Origin: Candidatus Lloydbacteria bacterium RIFCSPHIGHO2_02_FULL_50_18
Lineage (GTDB): Bacteria; Patescibacteriota; Minisyncoccia; Phycocordibacterales; UBA6899
DNA: 64,000 nucleotides
Direction: 5' to 3'
Assembly: GCA_001821395.1 (NCBI GenBank)
Contig: MHLM01000001.1
Span: 96,001-160,000 of the forward strand
The translations under genes and the position numbers were made by a program. This document shows positions 27,307 to 46,587 of this stretch, one piece after another (the stretch's first letter is position 1; each line of letters begins with the position of its first letter). The notes beneath the pieces were generated by a model. That model worked only from the letters and a program-made list of their open reading frames with translations. It ran no database searches and was not told the origin of the DNA.

Positions 27307-27693
27307 TTATTTTTTTTGAAATAATTGTTCGACCCTTCTAATAACCTCGGCGATCGGCGTATCGGATTTGGAAATAAAGTCTGTAGCCCCCAGTGAGCGC
27401 GCCTTCTTCTCGTCTTCTTCCTGACTAAGATTCGACAAAACGAGAATGGGTATCTTGTTGTTTTTTTTCTGTAATCGTTCAAGGACCTCAAAGCCGTTCA
27501 CGATAGGCATGATGAGGTCGCACACGAGAAGATCAAAATGAGAGCGTTCAATCAAGGAGAGCGCCTCTTCTCCGTTCGGCACACTCTCCGCATAAAAACC
27601 CGAATTTTGGAGTTTTAAAACAAGCGCACGTGAATACGCCCTTTCATCCTCAGCAATAAGAATCCTCTTCTTACTTTTCTCACTTGGCGGCAT
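27307..27693 (-). CDS. Response regulator receiver domain protein (CheY-like, stand-alone)
   Basis: KRILIAEDERAYSRALVLKL... with a phospho-Asp in FDLLVCDLIMP and a conserved K in ILVLSNLS. Confidence 0.75.
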   Translation of the reverse strand: MPPSEKSKKRILIAEDERAYSRALVLKLQNSGFYAESVPNGEEALSLIERSHFDLLVCDLIMPIVNGFEVLERLQKKNNKIPILVLSNLSQEEDEKKARSLGATDFISKSDTPIAEVIRRVEQLFQKK

Positions 27694-27859
27694 CAATAAA
27701 GTGTAACACAATTTTTATAGAAGCTTTAATTTATTGCATACGTGAATATGCCAACAAGCGATAGTTTCCGTACGAACGATTTACCAAATTCTCATCTGGT
27801 AGACATCGCAACCATGGCAATGGGGCTTAGCGCTCAGTCAACCGCGCATGACCGATGGT

Positions 27860-29320
27860 TTATGATCCTTTATGCGATGCCTCCTCGAGCTTCTCCTTAA
27901 GATCGGCTATCTCTTTTTTTAATTCGGTCATCTTCAACTCCCGTCCGATCATGAATTTATTCATCTGCTCGGTTTCTTTCATCATTTTTTTCAGATCGTC
28001 CGTTCGCACGGCCACTTTCACTTCAAGACTCTTGTCTTTTTCCTCGAGTGATCGCTTGAATTCTTCCGTCCTGTCTAAGACTTCTTTTTCAAGATATTTA
28101 CTTTTTTCTTCCATCACTTTTTCCAATTCTTTCGTGCGTTCACGCACCTTGTTCTCAAGGGCCGTAAAGGTATCCCCCAAGCTAGTAGTCATAGCATTCA
28201 TCGTTTCAGCGAGTTCGCCGAATTCATCGTCCGTCTTGACCTCTACCCGCTGGGAAAAATCTCCCCTCTTGATCGCCTCCGACAGTGACCGTAATTTTGA
28301 AAGCGGGCTAATAAAAATGATTATTGCACGATACGTCAAAAAGGAGACGAGCAAGATACCTAACAAAAAAATCGCGATGATCTTCATGACAATCGACAGT
28401 ACGGTGTCTTCAACACCTTGCATCCCGATCTCTGAGACCAGGTAGAATGGGAGGTCGTCAAATTTGATCACTGAAATATTCTCGTTTTCGTTATCTTTCG
28501 GATCAAAATAGTTTATTGTGACACTCCCGGTGTAGGTATCTATGATCTTTTGCACCTCGTTATATTGAAGCGGTACCACCTCTTTGCCAAGCAACTTATT
28601 CGTCTCTGCGATTAATGCGGAATTCTCAGGAGAAAGAGCGCCGATGCTTTTTAAAAAACGATCCGGGCGGTTTGAGACCAAAATGATGCCAAAACCATCA
28701 GTAAGCATTACGGAACTTGTGTTTGACAGCTCACTGCGCAAGATCGAATTGTCGATCTCAGTATTACTAGCCTTGACCACCACAATTCCGATCACAGTAC
28801 CACCGTCATCTTTTACTGGATAAGAAAAATAATAACCAAATTGATTACTTACGCTGCCGATCGCGTTATCAATATACGCTTCGCCGCGCATTGCAAATTT
28901 ATAATAATCGCGAAAACTATAATTCTGACCGACGAAACGCACATCTGTTGAAACAACACCTGAGCCGTGAGTATCCAAGAGGTAAATGGCAAGATACTTG
29001 CTGTTTTCCTTTGTGTAACCTGAAAAAACATCTAAAAGTTCTTTCCCTTTCGTCTCGTTCGGATTGAGGAAATACTCTCTCACCAGGGAATTCGTCCCAA
29101 GCATTTTTGAAAAAAGCTGATCGGTCTTAATGATCTGAGCGGTATAGTGGACCTGTTCGATCGCTATCTTGTTGATGTTGCTGATGTTCCCTTCAATGAG
29201 CGCGATATTGACGTAGAAATAGGTGACGAGCGTCGTAAGCGCGCATAAAAAAATAGACAATAAAACAAATAGGATCGTGATCTTTGCTCGTACTGAAGAA
29301 ATTCGGATCTTGGGTAACAT
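27860..29320 (-). CDS. Cache-HAMP signalling protein with C-terminal coiled coil (kinase-less paralog of 13105-14925)
   Basis: The N-terminal 370 aa are about 70% identical to the 13105-14925 protein (the same FLCxLT...YVN(I/F)AL(I/V)EGNI(S/N)NIN and YFSYPVK blocks). HAMP is followed by a 110-aa heptad-rich charged coiled coil with no HATPase. Confidence 0.7.
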   Translation of the reverse strand: MLPKIRISSVRAKITILFVLLSIFLCALTTLVTYFYVNIALIEGNISNINKIAIEQVHYTAQIIKTDQLFSKMLGTNSLVREYFLNPNETKGKELLDVFSGYTKENSKYLAIYLLDTHGSGVVSTDVRFVGQNYSFRDYYKFAMRGEAYIDNAIGSVSNQFGYYFSYPVKDDGGTVIGIVVVKASNTEIDNSILRSELSNTSSVMLTDGFGIILVSNRPDRFLKSIGALSPENSALIAETNKLLGKEVVPLQYNEVQKIIDTYTGSVTINYFDPKDNENENISVIKFDDLPFYLVSEIGMQGVEDTVLSIVMKIIAIFLLGILLVSFLTYRAIIIFISPLSKLRSLSEAIKRGDFSQRVEVKTDDEFGELAETMNAMTTSLGDTFTALENKVRERTKELEKVMEEKSKYLEKEVLDRTEEFKRSLEEKDKSLEVKVAVRTDDLKKMMKETEQMNKFMIGRELKMTELKKEIADLKEKLEEASHKGS

Positions 29321-29432
29321 AGAGGTCTTTCTTATGAAAAAACGTCACACGTGTCGTTGCTATAATGATAGCACCAATGGCCATTGAACAAAAATAACTG
29401 GGGCACGAAGTTCCCCGTATATGATCAGGGCG

Positions 29433-29825
29433 CTACGCACCGTAGGGATTGCTGCCATTCGCCCAACTTGATTCGAGATAGACCGCAGGACTGTCGGGGA
29501 GGAGTTTTCCCGTTTGCATATTTTGGATATGTACAAGCGGAGTTGCTCCGCCATTGCGCGCGATGATGACCCAGCTTAGTTCCGGATGTTGCTCTGCTAC
29601 TTCGCCATACATGAATCCACGAAATGCGTCAGTTCCGGAATCAATCACCATTGCCTCGGGGAAATTGTGAGCGATGTTTCTCGCCACTGCACTTTCAGCC
29701 AAGATCGGCAGATCGCGAAATTCCAGATGGGTTCCTTTTATTTTTTTTTGCAGCCAAACTGCGCGATAAGCGGACGGACCGCCTTCATAGTGTTCATTCT
29801 GGTTGATCTGTTCAAAATTATTCAT
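29433..29825 (-). CDS. Hypothetical protein (130 aa)
   Basis: ORF with no recognisable motif. Confidence 0.4.
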   Translation of the reverse strand: MNNFEQINQNEHYEGGPSAYRAVWLQKKIKGTHLEFRDLPILAESAVARNIAHNFPEAMVIDSGTDAFRGFMYGEVAEQHPELSWVIIARNGGATPLVHIQNMQTGKLLPDSPAVYLESSWANGSNPYGA

Positions 29826-29864
29826 AGTCTCTGTAATTATACAATACGTGAGCCCTTGGATTCA

Positions 29865-29899
29865 ATTATATCTTTATTATATACGTCTCCCCCATGCAG
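29865..29899. repeat. 35-bp direct repeat, copy 1 (copy 2 at 34287-34321)
   Basis: ttatatctttattatatacgtctcc(c/g)ccatgcagc, 34/35 identical. Confidence 0.85.
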
Positions 29900-29937
29900 C
29901 ACACCTCTTAAATATTAGCGCTGAGACTGTTCAAAGT

Positions 29938-29954
29938 GCTGCGGGGCTTGGAGT
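29938..29954 (-). repeat. Partial copy of the tRNA-Gln 3' end (att-like direct repeat)
   Basis: ctgcggggcttggagtc versus ctgcgggacttggagtc at the 3' end of the intact tRNA-Gln (35899-35915): 16/17, same orientation. Confidence 0.7.
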
Positions 29955-30250
29955 CACCCACATGTCCTGACAAAAAGATATTCACTACAATCTTTTTGCT
30001 GAATGAATCGGTCTCGGAAAAATCATACCAACCACAGTGGGGATATACCACCCCTTCTACTCTCGTAACTAGGCGTCTCGGTCACTATTTCATTCATAAC
30101 GCCGGCGGCGCCACTGTCTCTCTCAAATTTTCTGGACAAAATGCTCGCACGACCAACAAGGGGTTTGTCTACTCACCAGAAAAGTACAGAATATAGGTAT
30201 CCCCCTGCCAACTTGGGAGTATGCACAGAAATAAAATCAATACCCGCTGG

Positions 30251-30913
30251 CTAATCCTCTTTTTCTATGAGACCGTCTTTCAACCAAATCACTCGGTCCA
30301 TATACTTTCTATCCTCCGGCTCGTGGGTGATCATAATGATGGTCTGATTGAGCTCCTTGTTCAGCTTCTGAAAAAGCCGATACACCACCTCCGATGAAAC
30401 CGTGTCGAGATTTGCAGTTGCTTCATCTGCAAAGAGTATTTTGGGGCTATTAATGAGGGCCCGCGCAATCGCAACGCGCTGTTGTTCACCGCCTGACATC
30501 TCTCCAGGGTAATGATGCAGTCTCTCTTCTAATCCCACAAGCTTCAAGAGTTCTGAAGCTCGTTCCTCGTTATGCGTACCACCAAGGGCCATTCCGGGAA
30601 AATAAACATTCTCAAGTGCAGTAAATTCAGCAATAAGCGCATACTCCTGAAATACATACCCCAAATGATTAAGACGAAATGAGGTGCGCTCAGCATCAGA
30701 AAGGGCAAGAATATCAACATTATCGATGAGCACTGTGCCGGATGTCGGAATATCAAGAAGTCCCAATTGATGCAAGAGTGTTGATTTACCGGATCCACTT
30801 CTCCCCATGAGCGCGACAAACTCGCCCTTCTTTATTTCAAACGAAACCCCCCTCAACGCTCGAGTTGGAACTTCTCCGGGATATGTCTTTGTAAGATTGT
30901 TTACCTTGATCAT
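30251..30913 (-). CDS. ABC transporter ATP-binding protein (MacB/LolD-like)
   Basis: Walker A GRSGSGKSTLL, signature LSGGEQQRVAIARAL and Walker B ILFADE. Confidence 0.85.
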   Translation of the reverse strand: MIKVNNLTKTYPGEVPTRALRGVSFEIKKGEFVALMGRSGSGKSTLLHQLGLLDIPTSGTVLIDNVDILALSDAERTSFRLNHLGYVFQEYALIAEFTALENVYFPGMALGGTHNEERASELLKLVGLEERLHHYPGEMSGGEQQRVAIARALINSPKILFADEATANLDTVSSEVVYRLFQKLNKELNQTIIMITHEPEDRKYMDRVIWLKDGLIEKED

Positions 30914-30924
30914 AATGAATGTGT

Positions 30925-32157
30925 TTAACCCCAGATTGATCTTAAGATATTCTGCCTCGCTACCATTTTTGCAGGAATAAATCCCGCAAAGATTCCCGAA
31001 ATAGTAAGACTGATAATGTTGATAAAAATCTCAATGGGAGTGTACACCAAACTTGCGCTCCCAAACGGCATCGGAATTGGCCGCATTTGCAACAGTGGGA
31101 CCACAAGGGAAAAAACAATCAAAAGCCCCAGCATGGTTCCAAGAGTGACATAGAAAAGGGACTGGAGAACATACGATACCTCGATGATACTTTCCTTGAT
31201 GCCGATTGCTTTTAATATGCCAATTTGTCTGCGCTTGTTCACTGCGTTCACATAAATCATCACAAAGATTGTGATTGCGGCAACAATAATACTAATGACT
31301 GTGACAATAACCGCGATAATATCGAATGCATCAACAAGAATACCGACGGTACTAAGGCGATTCGTGTATTTTTCGATCTTTAAGTTTGGCGCTATCGCTC
31401 CAATCTGCTCGGCGTACTCATCGAGTGTTCCTCGGCCAAGATCCATTCGTACCATGATCTCTGAAGCATTGTCATAAACCGACAATATGGACTCCGCCTC
31501 CTCTGCTGAAATGAATGCAGTGCCTCCAACCGACCCACCCATGCTGATCTTAAATATTCCCCTTATCGTATACGTTCGGGTGATGCCATTGGAATAGGTC
31601 ACCTGGACTTCATCTCCGACAATGGCGCCACCAAGGTCTGATGTTTGCTTTGTCCCAAATCCGCCGGAGAGATTTGCTCCGAGTACGATCTCGTCATTTT
31701 TCAGATCATCTGGGAATTCACCAGAAACGATATTTTTATAGACCGTGAGGATCTTTTTTTCCTCCGATTGAGTCACGCCAACTACTGGTGCAGAGACTCG
31801 CTTGAATTCACCCATCTTTTCCTTGTCATACGCGAACGAACCACCCAACTGATAGTGTCGAGCCGTTCCAATAACTCCAGGAATTGTTCCGATCTGCGCA
31901 CGCACCTTCTCTTGGTTCAAGATAAATTCCTTGACCGTCGGTTCCTCTTGCGGCATGACAATAATATGCGCAGTCGAATTGTCTATCATTGACCGCATGA
32001 TCCCGTCAGAAAAACCGTTCAGAAATCCGGAGACAAACATCAAATTGAAGAATGAGAGAGATAAAATAAATACAGTGAAGACTGCCGTAGACTTATTGCC
32101 CCTCGTGATAGTTTTATAAGCAACAAAAAATGCTGTTTTCAAGTCAGTTCCATTCAT
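30925..32157 (-). CDS. ABC transporter permease (FtsX/MacB-type)
   Basis: 410 aa with an N-terminal TM, a large periplasmic domain and a C-terminal 3-TM FtsX-like region. Confidence 0.75.
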   Translation of the reverse strand: MNGTDLKTAFFVAYKTITRGNKSTAVFTVFILSLSFFNLMFVSGFLNGFSDGIMRSMIDNSTAHIIVMPQEEPTVKEFILNQEKVRAQIGTIPGVIGTARHYQLGGSFAYDKEKMGEFKRVSAPVVGVTQSEEKKILTVYKNIVSGEFPDDLKNDEIVLGANLSGGFGTKQTSDLGGAIVGDEVQVTYSNGITRTYTIRGIFKISMGGSVGGTAFISAEEAESILSVYDNASEIMVRMDLGRGTLDEYAEQIGAIAPNLKIEKYTNRLSTVGILVDAFDIIAVIVTVISIIVAAITIFVMIYVNAVNKRRQIGILKAIGIKESIIEVSYVLQSLFYVTLGTMLGLLIVFSLVVPLLQMRPIPMPFGSASLVYTPIEIFINIISLTISGIFAGFIPAKMVARQNILRSIWG

Positions 32158-32160
32158 GAT

Positions 32161-33711
32161 CTATTTTTGCTTTTTCTCAGCACCAAGAATAACCTGATCT
32201 CCATCGAAAAGACCCGAAATGATCTCGATCATACCGACATCGTTCTCGATGCCCGTATGTACCTCTGTCTCTGTCACCTGACCATCCGTAAGCGTCTGCA
32301 CTATCTTTTTTCCATCCTTGCTTTGTACGGCACTCGCGGGGACAAAAAGTGCATCTTCTGAAATTGCAGTGTTGATCCACACATTAGCCGTCATCCCCGA
32401 TCGAATGCGTTCGTCCACCTTGTCGAACAATATCGTTGTCTGATAATACACGGCACCGCCAATAATTGTCTCAACGGGATCAATAGTAACGACCTTTCCG
32501 CTAAATTCCTCATCTTCAATGGCATCAAACGTGATCCTCGCCTTCTGTCCAATACGTACATTCACAATCTTGTCTTCGACGACATTTAATTGTATTTGCA
32601 ATGCACCACCTGCGGCAAGTGACACTACAATTATGTCTGCACCAACAACCTCACCAACCTCACCCCGGACGTTCGTTACCATGGAGGATACCGGTGCAGA
32701 GATCGTCAAATCCCTCCTCTGTGCTTCTGTCCTCGTAAGGGAAGCTTCTGCTTGTATGATTTGCGCCTGATACACGGCAATATCCGACGACCTTGCCGGG
32801 GCAGTCTTTAGGGTGAGCTGATTCTCTGCGATGTGGAGGGCTGATTCTTTCATTTGGAGATTTTCTTCCGCAAGAAGAAGGTTTGACAGCGCAATGTCAA
32901 CATTCGTTCGCGCTGTGGAAATATCAGTCTTCCACTTATCGATTGTCGCTTGAGTAATCTTGGAACTTGGAGTAAGCGCGTTTACCATCAAGGCCTCATT
33001 CACAAGAAATGCCTTTACCTGTGAGGTATTTTTTTTAGCAAGAGTTGTTGCCAGAACAAGATCGCTCTCCGCTGAAACCTCCGCGAGACTTCCAGCCCAC
33101 TCATTGAGTGTCACCTCGATCCCAACCCTCGCCTCTAGTACCGCGCGCTCAAGTTGCATATCGAACGGAAAACTAAAGAGTAATTGTGGATTAGATGTTT
33201 TAGGATTATCGAACAATTGGTCAGACCTTGCTCGCACTGCGTCATCGGACCGAGTATAGGCACCTTGTAATCTATCAATCATATTCTTCTTTGCATCAAG
33301 AAGTGACTGCTCGGCATTATACACTGCAGTCTCAGAGATACTCACGTCTTCGGGTGACGCTCCACTTAATAGCTGACTTAATTTTGCCTTCTGAAGGTCT
33401 ATTCCCGCTTGCATTTCTTTTACCTGTGCATCGAGCTGAGTGGTATCTTGTTTGGCGAGAAGTTTGCCTGCTGAAATCTTGTCACCAACACGCGCATTCA
33501 AAAAAACAAGCTTGCCGCTTCCCTTGAAGCGCAAGTCAATCTGTGTTGGAGATTCGACTTTTCCACTTGCAGAAACCTCCTGAACAATATCCCCTCTTTT
33601 TGCAACCGCAAGAGTGTAGGAAGGAGCATTCAAACGCTGCATCAAAAAAATGCCGCTAATAGCCAGGGCAATCAGGGTTCCCAATGCGGTAAATAAGATT
33701 TTCTTGTTCAT
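32161..33711 (-). CDS. HlyD-family periplasmic adaptor (membrane fusion protein)
   Basis: N-terminal TM, a biotinyl/lipoyl-like beta hairpin, long coiled coils and a C-terminal beta-barrel region. Confidence 0.75.
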   Translation of the reverse strand: MNKKILFTALGTLIALAISGIFLMQRLNAPSYTLAVAKRGDIVQEVSASGKVESPTQIDLRFKGSGKLVFLNARVGDKISAGKLLAKQDTTQLDAQVKEMQAGIDLQKAKLSQLLSGASPEDVSISETAVYNAEQSLLDAKKNMIDRLQGAYTRSDDAVRARSDQLFDNPKTSNPQLLFSFPFDMQLERAVLEARVGIEVTLNEWAGSLAEVSAESDLVLATTLAKKNTSQVKAFLVNEALMVNALTPSSKITQATIDKWKTDISTARTNVDIALSNLLLAEENLQMKESALHIAENQLTLKTAPARSSDIAVYQAQIIQAEASLTRTEAQRRDLTISAPVSSMVTNVRGEVGEVVGADIIVVSLAAGGALQIQLNVVEDKIVNVRIGQKARITFDAIEDEEFSGKVVTIDPVETIIGGAVYYQTTILFDKVDERIRSGMTANVWINTAISEDALFVPASAVQSKDGKKIVQTLTDGQVTETEVHTGIENDVGMIEIISGLFDGDQVILGAEKKQK

Positions 33712-33824
33712 AAAATACACAAATAATAAAGAGTAAAAAAGACGCAGTCATTTCATTCCACTGCAATTCATCATAATATAAAATATCTTTACAAGCAAGT
33801 TACTTTATGATAAAGTAAACCAAA

Positions 33825-34280
33825 ATGGAACGTAAGGAAACGATAGAAAAACTCATCGCCTCAATACACAAGGAGACTCGGGCTGCGGGGCTTTTTGTGC
33901 ACACTATATCCGAGATCACTGGGATACATTCTACCGACATACGCTGTTTAGAATTTTTAAGTGAGGCACACTCCGCGACTGCCGGAGAACTTGGGAGGGC
34001 TACGGGGCTTACGACAGGGGCAGTCACTGCGATGATCGACAGGCTTGAAAATGGGGGCTTTGTAAAGCGCGAAGCGGATAAAAAAGACCGAAGAAAGATC
34101 ATCATCAGACTCCTGGGAATTCCGAAAAAGCTCAAATTGGTACGGGAAATGTTCTCAAAGCAAATACCCGACATTCTCGCTGAGTACAATACGGCGGAAT
34201 TACTATTGATTGCGAACTGGAACATAAAAATGGCCGCCGTATTTCACGAAAAAATAAGTAAACTCAAAGCAAAAGACTAA
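33825..34280 (+). CDS. MarR-family transcriptional regulator
   Basis: Winged HTH (TAGELGRATGLTTGAVTAMIDRLENGGFV). It is divergent from the efflux operon. Confidence 0.75.
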   Translation: MERKETIEKLIASIHKETRAAGLFVHTISEITGIHSTDIRCLEFLSEAHSATAGELGRATGLTTGAVTAMIDRLENGGFVKREADKKDRRKIIIRLLGIPKKLKLVREMFSKQIPDILAEYNTAELLLIANWNIKMAAVFHEKISKLKAKD

Positions 34281-34286
34281 CATCGC

Positions 34287-34321
34287 TTATATCTTTATTA
34301 TATACGTCTCCGCCATGCAGC
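34287..34321. repeat. 35-bp direct repeat, copy 2
   Basis: See 29865-29899. Confidence 0.85.
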
Positions 34322-34585
34322 GCTTCACAACAAAAACGACATGCGACGTATCTCTTGAATTTATAGGCAACTGAGCCCATTGATCGGGTAATGCCTCGTG
34401 AGACCTCGGAAGCGTATTCTCGCATCGGTTTCCCGTCTTTTGTGCTAAGGTGTCTCGGTTGAGGCCCTCTTGGACGAAATGGGCTTCTGCACAAATGCTG
34501 AAAACCACGTGTGCTCGGTGCGACAAATTGCTATCTTGGCAAAAAAACGATAGCCTTCGAACAGAGCCTGCTGACTGGGGTCATC

Positions 34586-34822
34586 ATGTCATCAATGAAA
34601 TCGGAGTTCCTCAATCATGCAAAATCAATGCTGGAACAGAAGCATGGGAATGTGCTTACGGACGTCGAAAAGCAACTAGTGCTTCAAGCATTTACGGCAT
34701 GGGAGTCACGGTGGAACGATAAGTCGCCGTCATGCACGCTTGATTGCCAGTGGCCGACATTTTCTCAAGAGGAAAAGTGCTCTACAGTGGAACGATTTTG
34801 CAATTCGTATATAAATCCGTAA
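34586..34822 (+). CDS. Hypothetical small protein
   Basis: ORF beginning MSSMKSEFLNHAK, with no SD. Confidence 0.3.
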   Translation: MSSMKSEFLNHAKSMLEQKHGNVLTDVEKQLVLQAFTAWESRWNDKSPSCTLDCQWPTFSQEEKCSTVERFCNSYINP

Positions 34823-35146
34823 ACGAAAGCCGCCGCACAAGAGTGTGGCTTTTTATTTATTTGCTTAATTCAAAAAATAAACATCGTGTCGTGCTAATCG
34901 GTCACTTACGATTTCATGAACGGCCTCTCGGTCATACGAACCTATTCTCGCACTCTGCCTTTCGAAGTGCTGGATGACTCGGTCGCGGATAATTCCTTGT
35001 GAGACGTTGTAAGGATATTCTCACACCCCCTTCACCTCTTGTGCTGATGGGAGTCGGTCAGTAAATATCCCAGAGATTCTTGCTTGCTAAACACAGTGAG
35101 TTCGAGTAGTCTTTGACGCAGAACATTGTTGAGGTAAGGGGTAGTC

Positions 35147-35815
35147 ATGTTGATATATGCCGTAATTGGTACGCTTGTGGTCGCACTGCTCATCTTCTTG
35201 GCGTGCCGTTATTTTCGAAATCATTGCCTCGAGTGCAAAAAGAGGACTGACTGGGACAAATATGACTCCTGCAAAGCGTGCAATGCGGAGCACGAAGCAC
35301 GGGTGTCAAAGCACCGAGAAGAAATGACGGGGCGCATGATTGCGGTCACCCATGAAGTACTTGCACAATCAAGGGCAGAAACGGAAGAATTCGGTTTTAG
35401 TGATTACGATTTCCTCGATAGACCCTGCATGGTCTGTTCGCCTGGCCGGACTACTAGTCACCGAGAACTCTTTCGAGAGCGTGGTCTCGCGGGTAATCCG
35501 CAAGCATGCCAAGATTATTATTGGAACACTCACGTTCCCCTTGCAAGAAAGGCGCACAAAGATCGCGAGTCAAAGAAATTTTGGAAGCGCTGGCTGTACA
35601 TCCCACCGACAAAAGAGGAGGAGGAAGCGGTCAGTCGAGTGAGCTGGTGGCTAAAGAATGCACTCAGTGCGGGTCGTGACGATCTTGCCCAGCTACGCGA
35701 GTACCGGACGTATCACGAAAAGCCTGACCATTGGATGGACATGACTACCAAACAACTCATGGAGCGCCGACTCTCGCGCGCAAAGAAGGCACTAGATTTA
35801 AATATTGATCGGTAA
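35147..35815 (+). CDS. Hypothetical membrane-anchored zinc-ribbon protein
   Basis: N-terminal TM helix, then CLECKK...CKACN. A terminator follows at 35826-35850. Confidence 0.5.
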   Translation: MLIYAVIGTLVVALLIFLACRYFRNHCLECKKRTDWDKYDSCKACNAEHEARVSKHREEMTGRMIAVTHEVLAQSRAETEEFGFSDYDFLDRPCMVCSPGRTTSHRELFRERGLAGNPQACQDYYWNTHVPLARKAHKDRESKKFWKRWLYIPPTKEEEEAVSRVSWWLKNALSAGRDDLAQLREYRTYHEKPDHWMDMTTKQLMERRLSRAKKALDLNIDR

Positions 35816-35825
35816 TGTTTATTTC

Positions 35826-35850
35826 GGGGCCATTAGCGCCCCTTTTTGTT
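35826..35850 (+). terminator. Rho-independent terminator
   Basis: ggggc-cattagc-gcccc followed by tttttgtt. Confidence 0.7.
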
Positions 35851-35898
35851 ATACAAAATATCTTATGCCTCTCGGTCATCCGAACCGATTCTTGATAG

Positions 35899-35969
35899 CT
35901 GCGGGACTTGGAGTCGAACCAAAATTGACGGATTCAAAGTCCGCTGTCCTACCATTAGACGATCCCGCA
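35899..35969 (-). tRNA. tRNA-Gln (anticodon UUG)
   Basis: Manual fold: acceptor UGCGGGA/UCCCGCA with U1-A72 (typical of bacterial tRNA-Gln), anticodon loop CU-UUG-AA, and T-arm UUUGG-UUCGACU-CCAAG. No encoded CCA. Confidence 0.8.
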
Positions 35970-36046
35970 ATAACAGGATAATAGCATTTTATATACGAAA
36001 GACAAAAAAACCGCCGTTACTACGGCGGTGACTGCTTCAACCGATA

Positions 36047-36451
36047 TCACGAATCGCACAATGTCCATTTTGCAGGATTATTCGTATGCTTTGATTGCGT
36101 AATTACCGCCCATTGTGGATCACCATGATTGTGAACGGGGGTAATCGTCTGCAGTGTGTATTCACCCATTTTCTGACTCATGTCTGACCTAAAAACATCA
36201 TCATTGGTGATAGTGCTCGGGTCCCTCTCCGGATGAATACTCGCAAAGAATTCCCTTCGCCAGCCGCGGAGGTCCCCTGTCACAATTGTTCTCTGTACAA
36301 AGATGAATTCGGGACCTGCATTGCAAATGAAATTATAGCGGTGGCCCGTCCCGTCTTCGATCAGGGAAGCATAGGGCGGCAGATTCAGGAAGATGTCTCT
36401 ATTGATCACGGGGTACTCCCCTAGGATGGTGTTTGCATCTCCAGAAACCAT
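36047..36451 (-). CDS. Hypothetical protein (paralog of 36546-36920)
   Basis: Shares the blocks FVQRTIVTGDLRGW and AVITQSKHTNNP with the neighbouring ORF. An alternative TTG start at 36475 is possible. Confidence 0.5.
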   Translation of the reverse strand: MVSGDANTILGEYPVINRDIFLNLPPYASLIEDGTGHRYNFICNAGPEFIFVQRTIVTGDLRGWRREFFASIHPERDPSTITNDDVFRSDMSQKMGEYTLQTITPVHNHGDPQWAVITQSKHTNNPAKWTLCDS

Positions 36452-36545
36452 AATACCAAATATGTATTTTGGCAACTATATATAAAAAATTCACCGCCGA
36501 AATTCGGAGGTGAATGGAGGGTGAAAAGTAAAAAATTAAGAGTGC

Positions 36546-36920
36546 TCAACTCTTAAACCAATCGCGGGGATCGTTCACCATGAACTTCTGAGTGACGATC
36601 ACCGCTTCCGGATTTCCTTCTCGATCACGGACGATTACTTCAACATAAAAAGCACCATAATTTTCCCGCACATCCATCTTGAGCATATCCCCTTGTTTCA
36701 AAGCACGAGGATCTGCATTCACGAGACAAGCATTTTCTTGCTTCAGCCAACCGTTAAAGTGGCGGATAACAATAGTGCGCTGTACATACAGCCGCTGCTC
36801 GTCGATGAACGCCAGGACCGCAAGTTCTTCTCGAGTACCGATTTTACAAATAGTATCGAGCGCAAATACACCGCGAAATGATTCCATCTTTGCCTCTTCT
36901 TGAGGTGGAACAAACAACAC
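36546..36920 (-). CDS. Hypothetical protein (paralog of 36047-36451)
   Basis: YVQRTIVIRHFNGW and AVIVTQKFMVNDP blocks. A terminator hairpin lies at about 36489-36520. Confidence 0.5.
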   Translation of the reverse strand: MLFVPPQEEAKMESFRGVFALDTICKIGTREELAVLAFIDEQRLYVQRTIVIRHFNGWLKQENACLVNADPRALKQGDMLKMDVRENYGAFYVEVIVRDREGNPEAVIVTQKFMVNDPRDWFKS

Positions 36921-36958
36921 CTAAATACCGTTATAGAGGGTGTTGGCAAGAACGTCAA

Positions 36959-37996
36959 CTACTTCCCTTCTCCGGCAACTTTAATAAGCGCTAATTCTAT
37001 CGGGAGCGTCGGTACCGTACTAAATCCGATCTCACGGGTCGCATCGAGAAATGCATAGAGTACATGAGAGTTGATCTTCTTTTCGGGAGAATTTGCCAAT
37101 CGCAACAGAAAAACGAGATCATCAGGAGTGAACTCATCTTTGTAATGACCTTCGGCGTTTTTGTCATAACGCAGCATGAGCGTCGCACGCATCTTTTCAA
37201 GAATGAGTCTCAAGTAGACCTTCATATCAACGTGTTCATCTTTGGCACTTTGTATCGCCGACAAACCGTCGGAAATATTTCCTGACTCGATGGATCCCAG
37301 AACGCGGTTCACAAGATCATGCGTCGGTGCTCCGACGATGCGAGAAACGGTGTCGACATCAAGCCGTCGGTCCTTCGCGGCTACCAGCACTTTTTCAAGT
37401 ACCGAAAGCGTATCGCGAAACGAGCCGTCGCCAAACATCGCAATGATGTCTGCTGAAGGACTGTCGATTGTTACCTGCTCCTTTTTCGCCGTATCGAGCA
37501 CATATTTTTTTAATTCATCGAGAGTCGGATCACGAAACACAAACGACTGGCATCGTGAGATTATGGTATCGGGGAGCTTATCTCTATCGGTGGTCGCAAG
37601 AATAAATACCGCATGCGCGGGAGGTTCCTCCAGAGTCTTGAGGAGTGCATTGAATGCTTCCTTGGTGAGCATGTGTACCTCATCGATAATGTAGACCTTG
37701 TACGGGGATTCGAATGGCATCGAGCGTACCGACTCACGAAGCTCGCGAATGTCGTCAATAGAACGATTTGAGGCACCGTCCATCTCATAGAGATCCGACG
37801 GTTTACACCCAATTTCGGCGGCAAAGATACGCGCAACGCTTGTCTTGCCCGTTCCTCGGCCTCCCGAAAAAAGATAGGCATGAGAAATAGATTTATCCTC
37901 AATCTCACGCAAGAGTATAGAAACAACCTCGTGCTGTCCCTGCACGTCTTCAAACTTACTGGGTCTATATTTCCGATATAAAGCGAGCTCGCTCAT
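36959..37996 (-). CDS. dnaX: DNA polymerase III subunit gamma/tau (short form)
   Basis: YRKYRP, Walker A GGRGTGKTSVARI, and a DEVHML box. Confidence 0.85.
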   Translation of the reverse strand: MSELALYRKYRPSKFEDVQGQHEVVSILLREIEDKSISHAYLFSGGRGTGKTSVARIFAAEIGCKPSDLYEMDGASNRSIDDIRELRESVRSMPFESPYKVYIIDEVHMLTKEAFNALLKTLEEPPAHAVFILATTDRDKLPDTIISRCQSFVFRDPTLDELKKYVLDTAKKEQVTIDSPSADIIAMFGDGSFRDTLSVLEKVLVAAKDRRLDVDTVSRIVGAPTHDLVNRVLGSIESGNISDGLSAIQSAKDEHVDMKVYLRLILEKMRATLMLRYDKNAEGHYKDEFTPDDLVFLLRLANSPEKKINSHVLYAFLDATREIGFSTVPTLPIELALIKVAGEGK

Positions 37997-38104
37997 GTGA
38001 AGAGTATAGCCTGTCTGATACACCTTCTGCAAAGGGATATGCTCGGTCGCGGGGGTGCAACAAAATAGCCCCGACCGTACTGGCGGGGCTATGTTGATGA
38101 AATA

Positions 38105-38323
38105 CTAACAAACGTCAGGGCCGTGGCTTCCGCAACAAAGCTCACCGAGCGCCTCATTCGTTGACGCCTGAATAGCGTCTTTGTGACAGCATGATTCTGC
38201 AGTTTTGCCGCACGGGCATTTTCCATGCTCATCAAGCACCACTTTTTTTTCGTCAGCGGAACATGCGGCAACGCCCTTTTTATCAGACCCTGCACATGCG
38301 CAATCTCCTCCGCAGCCTCCCAT
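38105..38323 (-). CDS. Cys-rich metallothionein-like small protein (72 aa, 13 Cys)
   Basis: MGGCGGDCACAGSDKKGVAACSAD...GKCPCGKTAESCCHKD...ELCCGSHGPDVC. Its start overlaps the stop of the upstream gene (TAATG). Confidence 0.55.
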   Translation of the reverse strand: MGGCGGDCACAGSDKKGVAACSADEKKVVLDEHGKCPCGKTAESCCHKDAIQASTNEALGELCCGSHGPDVC

Positions 38324-38817
38324 TATGATTTTTTCTTCTTAGCTGGAGCCTTCTTGACCGACGCCTTTTTAACAGAGACTTTCTTGGCAACACCTTTCTT
38401 TGCGACGACCTTTCTTACCGTCTTCACTGCTTTCTTTACAGTTTTTTGAACCGCCTTCTTGGCGACTGATCCGCCCTTCTTTGCGGTGCGTGTAAGCTCG
38501 CGCTCGACGTTCTTCCAGTTCTTTTTGAGTTCCACTGCAGCACGATCGAGGTCACTCGCCTTGATCGAGGTCATATTCCCGTAAACCTCTGTCGCGTTAT
38601 CAATGATGGCTGCGTATGCCTTCTGATCAAGCTTCTTCATTTTCTTTGCCGCCTTCATGACATCAGCCTCCAGGTCTCCAACCCACTTTGCCGCCTTTTT
38701 GCGATGAGCTCCTGCATCCTTACTGCCATAAAAATAATACCCCGCTCCGGCCGCGGCCGCTGCTGCGAGCCCCAGACCGACTCCGACTGCTACTTTCTGC
38801 TTATTGACCTTTGCCAT
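38323..38817 (-). CDS. Lys/Ala-rich basic protein with histone H1-like KKAVKK repeats and an N-terminal hydrophobic segment
   Basis: The C-terminus reads AKKAVQKTVKKAVKTVRKVVAKKGVAKKVSVKKASVKKAPAKKKKS. The N-terminus is VAVGVGLGLAAAAAAGAGYYFY. Confidence 0.55.
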   Translation of the reverse strand: MAKVNKQKVAVGVGLGLAAAAAAGAGYYFYGSKDAGAHRKKAAKWVGDLEADVMKAAKKMKKLDQKAYAAIIDNATEVYGNMTSIKASDLDRAAVELKKNWKNVERELTRTAKKGGSVAKKAVQKTVKKAVKTVRKVVAKKGVAKKVSVKKASVKKAPAKKKKS

Positions 38818-38847
38818 ATATTTAAAATTAAATGAATAACACTCATG

Positions 38848-39153
38848 CTACACACCAGCGTCATGCTTATGCTTGCCGCGGGCTTTTTTATTACGTGATA
38901 CAACAGAAGCGAAAAAATCACTCACGTGCTTCACCTTCATTCCCTCTTCGCGAACCCTTGCTCGCAATATCCGGATATCATCACGAATATCGTTGCTCTC
39001 CAAAGTGACATTTTTCATCACCTCGTCAAAGCTTTTGAGAATTCGGATCACATAGAATAATGCAACGATGAGCAATACTCCGAGAGCGATGACCACTCCC
39101 GTAGTTGCAACGAAGAACACATCCATCTTGAAAAAATCATCCATATGATGCAA
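38848..39153 (-). CDS. Small membrane protein (hypothetical)
   Basis: One TM helix (VFFVATTGVVIALGVLLIVALFYVI) followed by a charged tail. Confidence 0.5.
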   Translation of the reverse strand: MHHMDDFFKMDVFFVATTGVVIALGVLLIVALFYVIRILKSFDEVMKNVTLESNDIRDDIRILRARVREEGMKVKHVSDFFASVVSRNKKARGKHKHDAGV

Positions 39154-39185
39154 CTATTATATACCACCCCGCTTTCAGTGCAAAC

Positions 39186-39208
39186 AAAAACCCCTCAACA
39201 ATGAGGGG
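39186..39208 (-). terminator. Rho-independent terminator
   Basis: cccctcaacaatgagggg with a T-run on the minus strand. Confidence 0.65.
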
Positions 39209-39454
39209 TCAGCGATGAATGATGAGGCGCAGGGCGGCTTTGATCATGACCAGCCCCATGATACATGAGAGGAGCGGAATGATGAGCATAAACGAGAATT
39301 TGATGTCGTAGATCACTACGATAGAGAAGTAGGCACACCCGGCAAGCAAGTGCAGCATGCCCCAGATCATGAGACAAAATCCCGCCTTACGCCGAGACTT
39401 TTCAAGGCGGAACGCACGCACGAAGGACTCTGCGAGGTCAACAACGAGCTTCAT
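39209..39454 (-). CDS. Small membrane protein (hypothetical)
   Basis: Two TM helices. The start was chosen at MKLVVD. Confidence 0.4.
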   Translation of the reverse strand: MKLVVDLAESFVRAFRLEKSRRKAGFCLMIWGMLHLLAGCAYFSIVVIYDIKFSFMLIIPLLSCIMGLVMIKAALRLIIHR

Positions 39455-39521
39455 TGAATGAACTCCTTCTACGAATACGGATATCTGTTCATAGCATAGT
39501 ACGAGTGGTACTAATGTCAAT

Positions 39522-40481
39522 TCAACGATCCGTATCAGACAAAAAATCAGTCACGATGGATTCTATCTCCGCCGCCCCACCGGCCTCCATAAGTCTGACG
39601 CGTAATTCCTTTGCGCCGTCGAAGCCATTCACATACGCTTTGTAATGCTTCTTCATCACGGCAAAATTCTTCACATCGCCCAATAGTTCCACGAAGAGCC
39701 TAGTGTGTTCGAGCATGATGGCAAAGCGCTCTGCTAATTTCATTTCATCCAACGATCTGCCGGCAAACAAAAATGGATTACCAAAGATCGCACGGCCGAG
39801 CATGATGCCGTCCGCGCCTGTTTCTTCTGCTTTCTTTTGTGCATCATCGAGATCTTTCACGTCACCGTTGCCGATGATGAGCGTACCCGTTCCTTTCGCC
39901 ATTCGGACCGCTTCCGCTATGTGCTCCCACCTGGCCGGAACATCGGACATTTCTTTTCTCGTTCGTGCGTGTACGGTGATTGCCGCAGGCTTCGCATCAA
40001 GGAGTGCAGAAAGCCACGTATCAAGTTCAACAGCGTTATACCCCACACGCGTCTTCACTGACACGGGGAGCTGGGGTGCACCCTCTTTTGTTGCGGCAAT
40101 GATCTCTTGCGCAAGTTTTGGATGCTTCATCAGACTTGCCCCACCGCCTTGCTTCTCGACGTTCTTATCGGGACAACCCATATTGATATCGATACCATCG
40201 AACCCGAGTTGTGCGATCAATGCTGCAACCTTAAAAAAATGATCGGGCTTTGACCCAAAGACCTGTGCAACGATAGGGCGCTCTTCCTCCGTATACAAGA
40301 GGTCCTTCAAGAGCACTGCGCTTCCCGGCGACAAAAGACCGTCCACGGCGACGAACTCAGTCCAGAGCACATCGGGCTTTCCGTACTTTGCAACAATACG
40401 TCGAAGGGCGGCATCGGTGACATCGGCCATCGGCGCAAGAGCAAAAAAAGGTTTCGGGAGTTGTGCCCAGAAGTTTGACAT
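39522..40481 (-). CDS. dus: tRNA-dihydrouridine synthase
   Basis: FALAPMADVTDAALRRI, GFDGIDINMGCP, and the TIM-barrel catalytic Cys. Confidence 0.85.
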   Translation of the reverse strand: MSNFWAQLPKPFFALAPMADVTDAALRRIVAKYGKPDVLWTEFVAVDGLLSPGSAVLLKDLLYTEEERPIVAQVFGSKPDHFFKVAALIAQLGFDGIDINMGCPDKNVEKQGGGASLMKHPKLAQEIIAATKEGAPQLPVSVKTRVGYNAVELDTWLSALLDAKPAAITVHARTRKEMSDVPARWEHIAEAVRMAKGTGTLIIGNGDVKDLDDAQKKAEETGADGIMLGRAIFGNPFLFAGRSLDEMKLAERFAIMLEHTRLFVELLGDVKNFAVMKKHYKAYVNGFDGAKELRVRLMEAGGAAEIESIVTDFLSDTDR

Positions 40482-40560
40482 TATGGAACTATAAGGTAGT
40501 TCGCAGGGTGGCGTCAACCACATTACTCCTTAATAAACAGACGTCACAAGACGATCGCAT

Positions 40561-43239: not shown

Positions 43240-43241
43240 GA

Positions 43242-43703
43242 TCAGAAGGTCAGTGAATGAATTCCGGTAATGAAAAAATGTCCGACAAGAATAGGGAGGA
43301 TCGTCCACAGCAAGATGATCGCCATACCAAGAAGCAGTACGATAAAAAAGCAAATAATGGCAATACCGATGAGCGCACTACGGAGCACAAAGCCGACCAT
43401 CCGCATGATAAAATTGACGACCATGTTGCCAAAAAACTCTCCTGGATCAATGATCAGACTTACTTTTTTCTCCTGAAGCCTCTTGAACGGAGCGACCCAG
43501 CTTCGCACGACGTCAGGAAAAGAAAAAAGATGATTCACATACCAAAGATAGTTCCACCAAATGTGGACAATATCCACATAGGCCAGTGAATAGTGCCAAA
43601 CAAAGTAATCTCGCATGAGCGCCAATAGGGGCATATAGTAAAAGTATATCATGGAGCGGGCAACAACGAATAGCGAGTAGCAAATATGTATAAAAAACCG
43701 CAA
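43242..43703 (-). CDS. Polytopic membrane protein (hypothetical), immediately upstream of the AAA+ gene
   Basis: Four predicted TM helices. Its stop abuts the start of the AAA+ gene. Confidence 0.55.
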   Translation of the reverse strand: MRFFIHICYSLFVVARSMIYFYYMPLLALMRDYFVWHYSLAYVDIVHIWWNYLWYVNHLFSFPDVVRSWVAPFKRLQEKKVSLIIDPGEFFGNMVVNFIMRMVGFVLRSALIGIAIICFFIVLLLGMAIILLWTILPILVGHFFITGIHSLTF

Positions 43704-43737
43704 ACCATTAATGGCGTGCGGTTGTTGTTCAACGGAT

Positions 43738-44331
43738 CTACCTGTACTTATTACACCGAATGAGCTGAGTAAAGTCGTTTTGGTCTTTTATAGCCAGGCA
43801 CATGCCACTCTCATAAAATTCAAATCCATCTCTAGTGATCGCACCGTCAGCACTGTCGGTATCGAGTCTAAAAAAATAACCAGAGACAAATCCATCATTT
43901 GCAGTCTTTAACAGAACACTGTGTCCCTCAGGTTCCACCCTTCCACGATCACGTGCGCGATACTTGATTGTCAGCAATAGTTCGCGTGCTCCTCTATATT
44001 CATGTTTCGCAATAAGTTTTGCCGCCGCAAGCATATCCGTTTCATTGCGGAGCAACGCCAGTGCATGATCCAATTGCTCATATCGTTTAGAGTTCCCCTG
44101 GCAAGAACGATATGCGAAAGTATCGGCATAGACGAGGGCGCCCACTGCCTCGCTAACATCCCCTGACTTGATGGCAAGCGCCGCGTACTTCTCGAACACA
44201 GCGATCTGCCGTTTCATTTTTTGCATTTGCGGCGCACTCATCGAATCGCAGCGCTCTGTGAGTGGCGCGGCAAAGGAAATTTCGGGTAACGCGATAGCAA
44301 GCACAGCAAAAAATATTTTGACAAAATTCAT
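43738..44331 (-). CDS. Secreted hypothetical protein
   Basis: Signal peptide MNFVKIFFAVLAIALPEISFA. Confidence 0.5.
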   Translation of the reverse strand: MNFVKIFFAVLAIALPEISFAAPLTERCDSMSAPQMQKMKRQIAVFEKYAALAIKSGDVSEAVGALVYADTFAYRSCQGNSKRYEQLDHALALLRNETDMLAAAKLIAKHEYRGARELLLTIKYRARDRGRVEPEGHSVLLKTANDGFVSGYFFRLDTDSADGAITRDGFEFYESGMCLAIKDQNDFTQLIRCNKYR

Positions 44332-44412
44332 GATTATCCTTTTCTGCGTGGTCCTAAAACATGGTACCATAAAAACGATAGAAGTCAACATAATGCTACC
44401 AATAGATGGCGG

Positions 44413-45255
44413 CTACTTATAGAATATTTTATTGCCAAAACGCAAGTCGATCGACTTCACCGTTGTTGTCCCCTTCTTTGTACGCGCGATCTCCTCTTCA
44501 GCAAGCTTCAAGTTTGCAACACTTGCGCTCGGATCCTTCGATGAGGTCCATGAAAAAATCCATGGCTTGTCACTCGTGAAGGAGTAATCATGCTCATCAA
44601 GCTGGTCGATCTCATGCACGAAAATTCCCTCCTTTTCCAGCTCAGCAATAACGGCATACACTCTTTCGAGTTCTTCTTTCGGAAGCATAAATAATCCGAT
44701 CGGAGTATCCTGTTCGCTTTCACCCGCAATATTGGTGCGATAAATATCGAACGGGTAACCGGAGTACTCCGGAGCAAGCGCAAATACATAACCCTCACTG
44801 TCGGCGAGATAACAAATACCGCGGTCAGTCGTCGAGGCCTCAGCGCCACTCATGCACCAGAGATGCTTTGGCAGATACTCTATTATATTGATCTTCAGTA
44901 TCTTTTTTGCCTCAACGTTCATGTCGACCGCTTTGATGTGCGCATCAAAAGCGAGTAACGCAAGTGAAAGTTCCGAGCTTGGGTAAAAGAGTGCATTGTT
45001 GCGGTCTATCCTCCAAAGGATCTTTTCGGAAAGTAGTTTTTGTGCGATATTCCTGATCTCATCTGCACTACTTGCTACCGCTCCGGAGACCTCGATCGTA
45101 CTGATGCGAATAGCCTCCCGCTCCGCCCCCCAACTCACCGCGAAAAAAAGAAAATACCCAATCAATAAAAACTGACAGAGCCGTTCGAACGCGAGATCAA
45201 TGCGACGCATCCGGGCTCGTCCTGATTTAAGTGTTTTACGCGAGAGAAAGGCCAT
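44413..45255 (-). CDS. FtsQ/DivIB-like cell division protein (POTRA domain)
   Basis: N-terminal TM and a POTRA-like IRISTIEVSG, with a beta-rich C-domain. Confidence 0.5.
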   Translation of the reverse strand: MAFLSRKTLKSGRARMRRIDLAFERLCQFLLIGYFLFFAVSWGAEREAIRISTIEVSGAVASSADEIRNIAQKLLSEKILWRIDRNNALFYPSSELSLALLAFDAHIKAVDMNVEAKKILKINIIEYLPKHLWCMSGAEASTTDRGICYLADSEGYVFALAPEYSGYPFDIYRTNIAGESEQDTPIGLFMLPKEELERVYAVIAELEKEGIFVHEIDQLDEHDYSFTSDKPWIFSWTSSKDPSASVANLKLAEEEIARTKKGTTTVKSIDLRFGNKIFYK

Positions 45256-45264
45256 ACGCAGAGT

Positions 45265-46530: not shown

Positions 46531-46587
46531 GGAAACATCATAGCAAAACTGCGGGAAAAAGAAAAAAGTACAAAAAAAGCCGGATGT

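Follow-up and report, generated by a model that had tools for sequence, protein, structure and literature searches.

A probable composite remnant of insertions beside the dnaX-linked tRNA-Gln(UUG) gene of a Candidatus Lloydbacteria genome

The window analysed here is a stretch of 64,000 nucleotides (nt) from contig MHLM01000001.1 (positions 96,001 to 160,000) of Candidatus Lloydbacteria bacterium RIFCSPHIGHO2_02_FULL_50_18, and our subject is the interval within it, at window positions 29938-35897, that begins directly downstream of an intact tRNA-Gln(UUG) gene and ends in a short direct copy of that gene's 3' end. The interval holds a MarR-type regulator, a divergent operon for an ABC exporter, and small genes and decayed repeats. 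A preliminary description of this DNA had read it as a single mobile island inserted into the tRNA 3' end. The tRNA-proximal boundary is made up of the following features.

35898-35969, minus strand: intact tRNA-Gln(UUG) (ARAGORN tRNA-Gln(ttg); Rfam RF00005 at 35899-35969, 60.8 bits, E = 1.7e-11)
36005-35978: promoter-like site (promoter scan)
36029-36010: terminator of the gene upstream of tRNA-Gln (terminator scan)

ARAGORN and Rfam thus bear out the intact minus-strand tRNA-Gln of the preliminary description, and its place at one end of the interval is that expected of a genomic island integrated in a tRNA gene (tDNA). A second copy of the 18-mer GCTGCGGGACTTGGAGTC (35898-35915), oriented alike, stands at 29938-29955, with 17 of 18 positions identical and a single A-to-G mismatch; the 17-nt repeat reported earlier is therefore real, although its copy occupies 29939-29955 and had been placed one base off, at 29938-29954. 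No further match with up to three mismatches is found on either strand of the 64 kb, where shuffled sequences lead one to expect 0.06. The copy covers the 3' part of the T-loop, the 3' strands of the T-stem and acceptor stem, the discriminator and one further base, and it lies downstream of the tRNA-Gln 3' end, in the geometry of a displaced fragment. Neither ARAGORN nor Rfam (E<=1) places a second tRNA at 29938-29955, which rules out the copy as a second tRNA or pseudo-tRNA and disposes of the one objection of this kind that the preliminary description had raised against itself, namely that the 17-mer might belong to another full-length tRNA. A match by chance, with no historical link to the tRNA, might be argued from its shortness and from the fact that the mismatch would break acceptor pair 7:66, but it is refuted by the 0.06 matches expected even at up to three mismatches and by the behaviour of the corresponding tRNA-mimicking arm in relatives, which tracks the genome's own tRNA-Gln in contigs L102, L107, L036 and L024 (L008 to L114 are our labels for relatives' contigs); we give this explanation next to no credence. 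The repeat at 29938-29955 derives from the tRNA-Gln 3' end.

Among some 30 relatives (Candidatus Lloydbacteria and Paceibacteria), synteny running from dnaX is always broken at tRNA-Gln, and the linkage from dnaX to tRNA-Gln itself is kept in about 20 species representatives of the Paceibacteria. In the close relatives, whose DnaX proteins are 68-91% identical, the DNA that runs from dnaX as far as topoisomerase I (window 36959-50243) is colinear throughout, and the sequences differ from the first base after tRNA-Gln onward. Downstream of the tRNA, L102 carries a P-type ATPase, a CsoR-like repressor and an FAD oxidase, L105 an ASCH protein, and L107 and L110 small open reading frames (ORFs) followed by a backbone of genes designated hyp234-GT2-SLT-DsbD. 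The tRNA-Gln gene is the anchor of the variable zone.

At four related loci (L108, L109, L025 and L015) a large serine recombinase directly follows tRNA-Gln. The recombinase of L108 and L109 has 427 amino acids (aa) and a Resolvase, Recombinase and Zn-ribbon architecture, lies about 130 nt from the tRNA end and reads toward the tRNA. These two contigs are 99.55% identical through dnaX, tRNA-Gln and the recombinase (L108 11949-19791 against L109 11948-19790), whereas their cargo beyond it is unrelated, comprising a Type ISP restriction-modification system with SNF2 in one and Type I restriction-modification hsdMSR with a KAP NTPase in the other, so that this locus looks, from its sequence, like a recombinase-anchored, cargo-swapping defence island in Lloydbacteria. 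The recombinases of L025 and L015 are homologous and have the same position and orientation, and in L025 the frame is open into the tRNA. Direct copies of the tRNA-Gln 3' end occur downstream in L008 (+5154), L024 (+94), L036 (+187), L102 (+190) and L028 (+1253). In L112 12773-13034, as also in L113 and L114, tRNA-Gln is inverted relative to dnaX, with a 54-nt partial copy of its 3' part 48 nt downstream and a copy of about 20-24 nt of its 5' part 68 nt upstream (13015-13034); these partial copies are multiple recombination scars within one tRNA locus. With the shared dnaX side, the breaks at the tRNA, the recombinases and the displaced copies taken together, site-specific insertion at tRNA-Gln is well founded, and the dnaX-linked tRNA-Gln(UUG) is a hot spot of integration across the lineage, in Candidatus Lloydbacteria as in related Paceibacteria. 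A 21-mer of the tRNA 3' end, taken as a possible viral attP, had no exact match in IMG/VR.

Other features of these loci deserve record. L008 contains a CRISPR-like mini-array at 11761-11870, a 37-nt sequence (GTTTCAATCCGCGCTCCCGGTGTGACCCGAGAGCGAT) present twice, 36 nt apart, in the stretch from tRNA-Gln to the 17/18 copy of the tRNA 3' end, which lies 5.1 kb off. Variability extends to the spacer that separates dnaX from tRNA-Gln: in the window (35970-36958) it holds two orphan ORFs of 142 and 124 aa; L100 has ORFs of 111 and 154 aa there, one of them 40% identical to the window's 142-aa ORF; L102, L108 and L112 have VanY and other genes, and L105 none. The contigs L100, L101, L104, L105 and L106 break off about 0.1-0.9 kb past tRNA-Gln, and L111 stops at a remnant of that gene; repeats or differences between strains at this place would be expected to interrupt assemblies in this way.

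Within the interval, the order from the tRNA outward is module 1, a scar, module 2, a scar, module 3, a spacer, and a tRNA-end remnant with a truncated form of the element that follows tRNA-Gln in relatives (the trailer, described below), after which comes a gene for a 130-aa protein (hyp130). The rows that define this order, apart from the exporter operon of module 3 and the trailer remains, are as follows.

35867-35892, minus strand: first copy of motif M, 26 nt (AGAATCGGTTCGGATGACCGAGAGGC), beginning 5 nt from the tRNA 3' end and forming the tRNA-proximal end of module 1
35147-35815, plus strand: 222-aa protein without assigned family (module 1), with an N-terminal hydrophobic stretch and CxxC...CxxC, reading toward the tRNA
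34950-34984, minus strand: scar, copy C; decayed tRNA-3'-end-like GACCGAGTCATCCAGC, then the opening ~21 nt of what L111 has after its 18-mer
34923-34948, minus strand: second copy of motif M (24/26), which follows immediately on copy C and forms the tRNA-proximal end of module 2
34511-34822, plus strand: 103-aa ORF of module 2 (about 34414-34947), absent from public annotation, with a terminator-like hairpin at 34832-34849
34287-34363, minus strand: scar, copy B; repeats U, the sequence upstream of hyp130 that comes after the 18-mer, and ends 6 nt from the marR stop
30017-30250: species-specific, non-coding spacer with a partial M-like stretch (30070-30084), between the ABC ATPase stop and the distal scars
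29866-29937, minus strand: copy A of sequence U, reaching from the 18-mer to the hyp130 promoter and paired, as the distal member, with copy B
29865-29836: promoter-like TTGAAT-18-TATAAT directly after copy A (promoter scan)
29433-29825, minus strand: hyp130, 130-aa protein without assigned function, first gene past the variable zone, linked to the trailer in L111 and L098

Several of these scar assignments rest on short, decayed matches. A pattern search for motif M returns two copies in the window against none expected. At copy C, the L111 junction 23-mer CAGCACTTCGAAAGGCCGAGCGC matches 34950-34972 on the minus strand with two mismatches; this is its sole match in the window, with none expected, and it is better than the match at the original position. 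Copy B is matched by a second L111 23-mer, TAAATTCAAGAGATACGCTGCAT, at 34341-34363 on the minus strand (two mismatches, none expected), and blastn aligns L111 235-285 with window 34363-34313. Copies A and B share a direct repeat of 35 nt (29866-29900 and 34287-34321, 34 of 35 identical, where chance predicts none) that is stronger than the 18-mer and brackets the pump operon and the distal scars; the two copies together bracket module 3. Aligned with L111, copy B keeps 26 nt that copy A has lost between two repeats of GCTGCATG. On these matches the interval divides into three modules or more, set apart by decayed copies of a single junction, each a tRNA-3'-end-like stretch with the sequence that follows it, and the further junction copies together with the 35-nt repeat make the interval composite.

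The 222-aa protein has no match in Pfam, PHROGs or NCBIfam, is represented by only 13 representative clusters among 1.84 billion proteins with a best full-length match of 59%, and is encoded by a gene followed by a terminator-like hairpin (35826-35842) and absent from L112. Callers placed only a 53-aa ORF (34264-34425) in the roughly 0.85 kb of 34281-35146, which holds no family-assigned gene; the 103-aa ORF at 34511-34822, likewise without a match in the three family collections, may be a real small gene. The spacer at 30017-30250 has no homology to L112 or to the trailers of L111, L098, L102 and L107.

The one close relative that covers the left flank, L111 (a contig of 2.7 kb), bears directly on the origin of the 18-mer. 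Its DNA is 83% identical to the window over 27508-29975, and its dCache-HAMP protein is 89% identical to that of the window (a 606-aa, low-GC (0.40) paralogue of this flanking protein lies at window 13105-14925 and is 74% identical at the nucleotide level to the L111 copy over 1.16 kb). L111 has the same copy of the tRNA end, mismatch included, and the next 20 nt on the island side are also the same, making 38 of 38 positions identical to window 29938-29975; by our own arithmetic, 0.83^38 is about 0.001 for a block in DNA that is otherwise 83% identical. The identity of these 38 nt, set against 83% in the adjacent 2.5 kb, suggests selection or constraint on the trailer end, or gene conversion. 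Beyond the 38 nt, L111 contains no pump operon and continues instead into a sequence of about 170 nt, with a decayed tRNA-Gln 3' end before it where the contig stops; this sequence is homologous to the DNA directly after tRNA-Gln in L102 and L104 and precedes the 130-aa gene in L098. Since the 18-mer and its 20-nt neighbour are identical in L111 with a different interior, the repeat was not made by insertion of the present content and is older than the split of the window's species from that of L111.

The sequence shared by these contigs is a palindromic trailer of about 140-190 nt directly 3' of tRNA-Gln, seen in L102, L104, L107 and L026 and partly in L018. Its copies, and its remains in the window, are located as follows.

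L102 12424-12630: trailer
L104 3043-3157: trailer
L107 2165-2320: trailer
L111 29-214: trailer
L026 12150-12316, minus strand: trailer
L018 6585-6732, minus strand: trailer
L098 45-165: trailer
Window 29976-30016, minus strand: weak tRNA-Gln 3'-end remnant (29998-30016) plus the first ~22 nt of the trailer (AAAAAGATTGTAGTGAATATCT), by local alignment
Window 29938-29975, minus strand: last 38 nt of the trailer, 100% identical to L111, with the 18-mer (29938-29955) as its 3' arm

The plan of the trailer, recognised in L102, L104, L107, L111 and L026 and partly in L018, begins with a short A/T-flanked palindrome, continues with a 5' arm complementary to the acceptor 3' strand of the tRNA, a hairpin, the complement of half the T-arm and a variable interior with motifs such as GACGGAGC and GCCGAGTCGGGGTCGAGAG, and ends in a 3' arm that copies the tRNA 3' end. 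The arms track each genome's own tRNA-Gln sequence (L102, L107, L036, L024). In an alignment made partly by hand from five to eight sequences, pairing of the inner hairpin is kept through changes on both sides at six of eight pairs (five sequences), and the hairpin is 82.5% paired, against 57% in shuffled sequences and 22-52% with the partner columns slid; an automatic consensus fold from a MAFFT alignment, itself a poor alignment, gave 0 pairs. The trailers of L018 and L102, from genomes whose DnaX proteins are respectively 49% and 82% identical to that of the window, share near-identical interior motifs (GCCGAGTCGGGGTCGAGAGTACTTAGTATTTTACG). Identification as a tmRNA or another known RNA was rejected, since Rfam gives no match at E<=1 and ARAGORN no tmRNA, and by eye the element is without the T-arm and tag reading frame of a tmRNA or the hammerhead core of a ribozyme.

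Placed against these trailers, the well-preserved 18-mer, which the preliminary description took for the attR, is the 3' arm of a conserved element that normally follows tRNA-Gln. All that can be recognised of that element in the window is its first ~22 and its last 38 nt; 29976-30250 has no significant similarity to the trailers of L111, L098, L102 and L107 otherwise, and the presence of a whole trailer is ruled out by the same comparison. The 70 nt past the breakpoint of homology match L111 24-45 with a score reached by 4 of 2000 shuffles, and the L102 tRNA end and trailer start with a score reached by 7 of 2000, although the tRNA-like part alone is not significant. The stretch at 29998-30016 is a more plausible candidate for the displaced tRNA end than the 18-mer, though the weaker match of the two.

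These observations decide how far the preliminary description can be followed. It held that one integrative element of about 6 kb had entered the tRNA-Gln 3' end, with the tRNA as attL, the 18-mer as attR, and an integrase since lost or acting in trans. The direct repeat (17/18) is non-random and in the right geometry, no second tRNA lies at the repeat, and relatives have recombinase-bearing islands at this hot-spot tRNA, so that the derivation from the tRNA 3' end and the hot spot both stand. The pairing of tRNA and 18-mer as the two ends of one element is not supported, given the identity of the 18-mer and its 20 island-side nt in L111, where other DNA follows. At least two internal scar copies (34950-34984 and 34287-34363) and a stronger 35-nt repeat that brackets the operon only speak further against a single island, as do the operon's unbracketed occurrence in L112-L114, its near-saturated synonymous divergence and native composition (both below) and the lack of presence/absence polymorphism in population contigs, and we regard this account as quite improbable.

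Module 3 consists of a regulator and a divergent three-gene operon.

33825-34280, plus strand: MarR-family winged-helix regulator, divergent from the pump (PF12802, 8.6e-13, 48.7 bits; PF01047, 2.2e-12, 47.1 bits; both above cut-off)
33800-33818: perfect 9+1+9 palindrome, TTACTTTAT-G-ATAAAGTAA, 7 nt upstream of the marR ATG
32161-33720, minus strand: MacA/YknX-like membrane-fusion protein, 519 aa (TIGR01730 RND_mfp, 132.9 bits, cut-off 94.9; MacA, 1.5e-32)
30925-32157, minus strand: FtsX-fold ABC permease of MacB/LolC/YknZ type, 410 aa (PF02687, 9.1e-11; LolCE and MacB models)
30251-30913, minus strand: ABC ATPase of LolD/MacB-NBD/YknY type, 220 aa (PF00005, 1.3e-34; LolD 4.5e-69 and MacB 5.1e-53, below equivalog cut-offs)

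These Pfam and NCBIfam matches agree with the gene content given earlier (ABC ATPase, FtsX permease, adaptor and divergent MarR). The adaptor also matches HlyD_D23 and HlyD_3 and carries precomputed YknX barrel and C-terminal domains. In the permease, the C-terminal FtsX domain spans residues 284-404 and LolCE aligns over residues 25-352; the protein belongs to a 90% identity cluster of 20 members from several Lloydbacteria and Patescibacteria genomes. The palindrome lies inside a block of about 45 nt that is near-identical between the window and L112, the remaining intergenic region having diverged, and is a candidate MarR operator. As judged from its families, the pump is probably an ordinary MarR-controlled exporter of MacAB/YknXYZ type: MarR would bind the palindrome at 33800-33818 and repress the divergent operon, a ligand would lift this repression, and the ATPase would then power the FtsX-fold permease while the adaptor drives some toxic compound or peptide off the membrane surface.

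We take YknXYZ of Bacillus subtilis to be the closest architectural analogue. The pump shares with MacAB and YknXYZ (type VII ABC systems) a separate LolD/MacB-type ATPase, an FtsX-fold permease and a YknX-type adaptor in one operon; unlike them, it has no outer-membrane partner and no YknW-like fourth gene, and is under a divergent MarR. The regulator resembles MarR repressors in having a winged-helix domain, a divergently placed operon beside it and, kept from one species to the other, a perfect 9-bp inverted repeat, but differs in that its candidate operator is only 7 nt from the marR start codon.

The contigs L112-L114, from another Lloydbacteria species (DnaX 68% identical), carry window 30253-34267, from marR through the ATPase, at 76% nucleotide identity; in L112 the proteins are 78% (MarR by tblastn, 76% in a full MAFFT alignment), 73% (adaptor), 92% (permease) and 92% (ATPase) identical. 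There the block keeps its orientation relative to dnaX and stands about 6.4 kb downstream of that gene, with the inverted tRNA-Gln on the ATPase side of the block, followed by the GT2-SLT backbone and with no bracket of tRNA plus repeat; the 222-aa gene, module 2 and the spacers are not common to L112. The preliminary description had named, as a finding that would count against it, relatives that carry the segment without any repeat, and L112-L114 go part of the way, since they carry the marR-pump block outside a bracket of tRNA and repeat. The synonymous divergence (dS) between window and L112 over the block is 1.3-3.1 (undefined for dnaX), and the nonsynonymous divergence (dN) is 0.05 for permease and ATPase. 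Because dS is near saturation, the high identity of the FtsX and ABC proteins reflects constraint and an old divergence; recent horizontal transfer of the operon, which 92% for these proteins against 68% for DnaX might suggest, is thereby ruled out. A compositional signal of an island is likewise excluded: GC content, GC content at third codon positions (GC3) and codon usage of the interval's five genes all fell within the range of the window, and GC skew was ordinary too. Divergence, native composition and presence in L112-L114 make module 3 a long-resident Lloydbacteria operon rather than the accessory-type cargo first supposed, one that stands beside tRNA-Gln in another species too, in opposite orientation relative to the tRNA.

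On another reading, no mobile insertion lies behind the present interval. Ancestral genes of the dnaX region would have been rearranged locally, from seeds in the trailer and tRNA fragments, by inversions, duplications, deletions and homology-facilitated recombination after natural transformation, the tRNA fragments themselves dating from unrelated earlier events. Consistent with this, the operon is oriented alike with respect to dnaX in the window and L112, whereas the tRNA is inverted and on the other side; the scars carry flank that recombination at an att core would not duplicate; the loss of 26 nt between two GCTGCATG copies is a deletion between short repeats; composition is native; and type IV pilus genes and DprA in the window make transformation plausible. 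Yet L102, L107 and L110, whose DnaX proteins are closer to that of the window than L112's is, have no marR-pump block in the DNA that joins dnaX to the GT2-SLT backbone, the divergence of relatives starts exactly at the tRNA 3' end, active-looking recombinase islands occupy the same site, and motif M stands directly after the tRNA and again directly after copy C, as if two inserts had shared an end. We consider rearrangement without mobile insertion unlikely on balance, but a contender to be taken seriously.

The absence of an integrase noted in the preliminary description holds on closer search. Pfam, PHROGs and NCBIfam find no integrase or recombinase among the interval's ORFs, tblastn of the window with a related serine recombinase gives no match at E<=10, and a hidden Markov model (HMM) built from three related serine recombinases reaches a best E of 0.9 against six-frame fragments of 34281-35897 and 29826-30260. 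The position that relatives' recombinases hold beside the tRNA is taken in the window by the 222-aa gene, whose product is unrelated to serine recombinases; a guess by eye that this protein, and a 193-aa ORF of L008, are C-terminal recombinase remnants failed the recombinase HMM test. Identical proteins are recorded for Candidatus Lloydbacteria bacterium RIFCSPHIGHO2_01_FULL... (locus tags A2845_02655-02685). An identical 130-aa flank protein is encoded on 20 contigs from several samples, and since every contig that is long enough shows the same arrangement, the segment looks fixed in the population.

On all of this we lean, with limited confidence, toward reading window 29938-35897 as an old, fixed and recombinase-less composite remnant of serial insertions and rearrangements at the tRNA-Gln(UUG) 3' end. 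Insertions would have been made by site-specific recombinases like the large serine recombinases of L108, L025 and L015, each displacing the earlier junction away from the tRNA; the recombinase genes would later have been lost, and homologous or illegitimate recombination would have added duplications and deletions, core-site recombination alone being insufficient for scars that include flank DNA. Several points weigh against this reading. The window shows no trace of a recombinase, whole or decayed, so that the class of enzyme is an extrapolation from what relatives carry. The internal scars hold from 21 to about 90 nt of flank beyond the tRNA-like core, which simple core-site recombination does not duplicate, and the farthest and presumably oldest copy is the best preserved, which calls for selection on the trailer or gene conversion. 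The hyp234-GT2-SLT-DsbD backbone of L102, L107, L110 and L112 is absent from the whole window, so that a larger rearrangement must have occurred in this lineage too, and, taken one by one, the decayed tRNA-like stretches in copies B and C and at 29998-30016 are weak. Finally, the empty site, tRNA-Gln joined to hyp130, is found in no relative examined, the contigs of the closest relatives ending about 0.1-0.9 kb past the tRNA; a search for it through the left flank returned only two hyp130 homologues (77% and 56%), both in unrelated contexts, and a metagenome scan with the dCache-HAMP protein none closer than 45%.

A more speculative proposal concerns the trailer itself, which might be a functional element: either a folded recombination site, with a logic like that of attC, at which serine recombinases stack and swap modules, or a structured RNA co-transcribed with the tRNA. 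The window would then hold a decayed array with its 38-nt end under selection. We think this improbable; were the folded-site version true, the tRNA-Gln locus would be a cassette platform in bacteria of the Candidate Phyla Radiation (CPR). The trailer after tRNA-Gln is nonetheless the one item here worth further work, and the part that could be new.

Among known systems, tDNA islands of the kind found by Islander and TIGER split the tRNA gene and restore it, leaving a displaced fragment that marks the far end, and tyrosine integrases are their usual catalysts (PMC4383910). The locus shares with them an intact tRNA, a direct copy of its 3' end downstream, variable content and recurrent insertion (PMC4383910). 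It departs from them in that the window has no integrase, the fragment is common to a sister species and part of a trailer, several scars lie inside, the cargo is old and of native composition, and the enzymes found at tRNA-Gln in relatives are large serine recombinases. Integrase-less remnants flanked by att sites are familiar elsewhere, as cis-mobilisable elements (CIMEs) next to integrative and conjugative elements (ICEs), and as the ccr-less pseudo-SCC and composite SCC (staphylococcal cassette chromosome) elements formed at rlmH by large serine recombinases. As in composite SCC and CIME arrays, modules are separated by att-like scars at one site and some lack a recombinase, and as in SCC, serine recombinases (here those of the window's relatives) act at the 3' end of a conserved gene. 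Unlike in those arrays, the scars are decayed and include flank DNA, and the gene targeted is one for a tRNA, in a CPR bacterium that has not been cultured. By this comparison the locus most resembles a decayed, integrase-less composite array at a single att site.

Little is known about how accessory genes are gained and lost in the very small genomes of CPR bacteria (Patescibacteria). The tRNA-linked insertion hot spot familiar from cultured bacteria operates in Lloydbacteria too, where in relatives of the window it is served by large serine recombinases and carries restriction-modification cargo that differs between near-identical strains. The window itself would give a view of such a tRNA insertion site after long decay. 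For island finders, it holds the lesson that a clean repeat of a tRNA fragment can be an old conserved feature and not the boundary of the genes it encloses.

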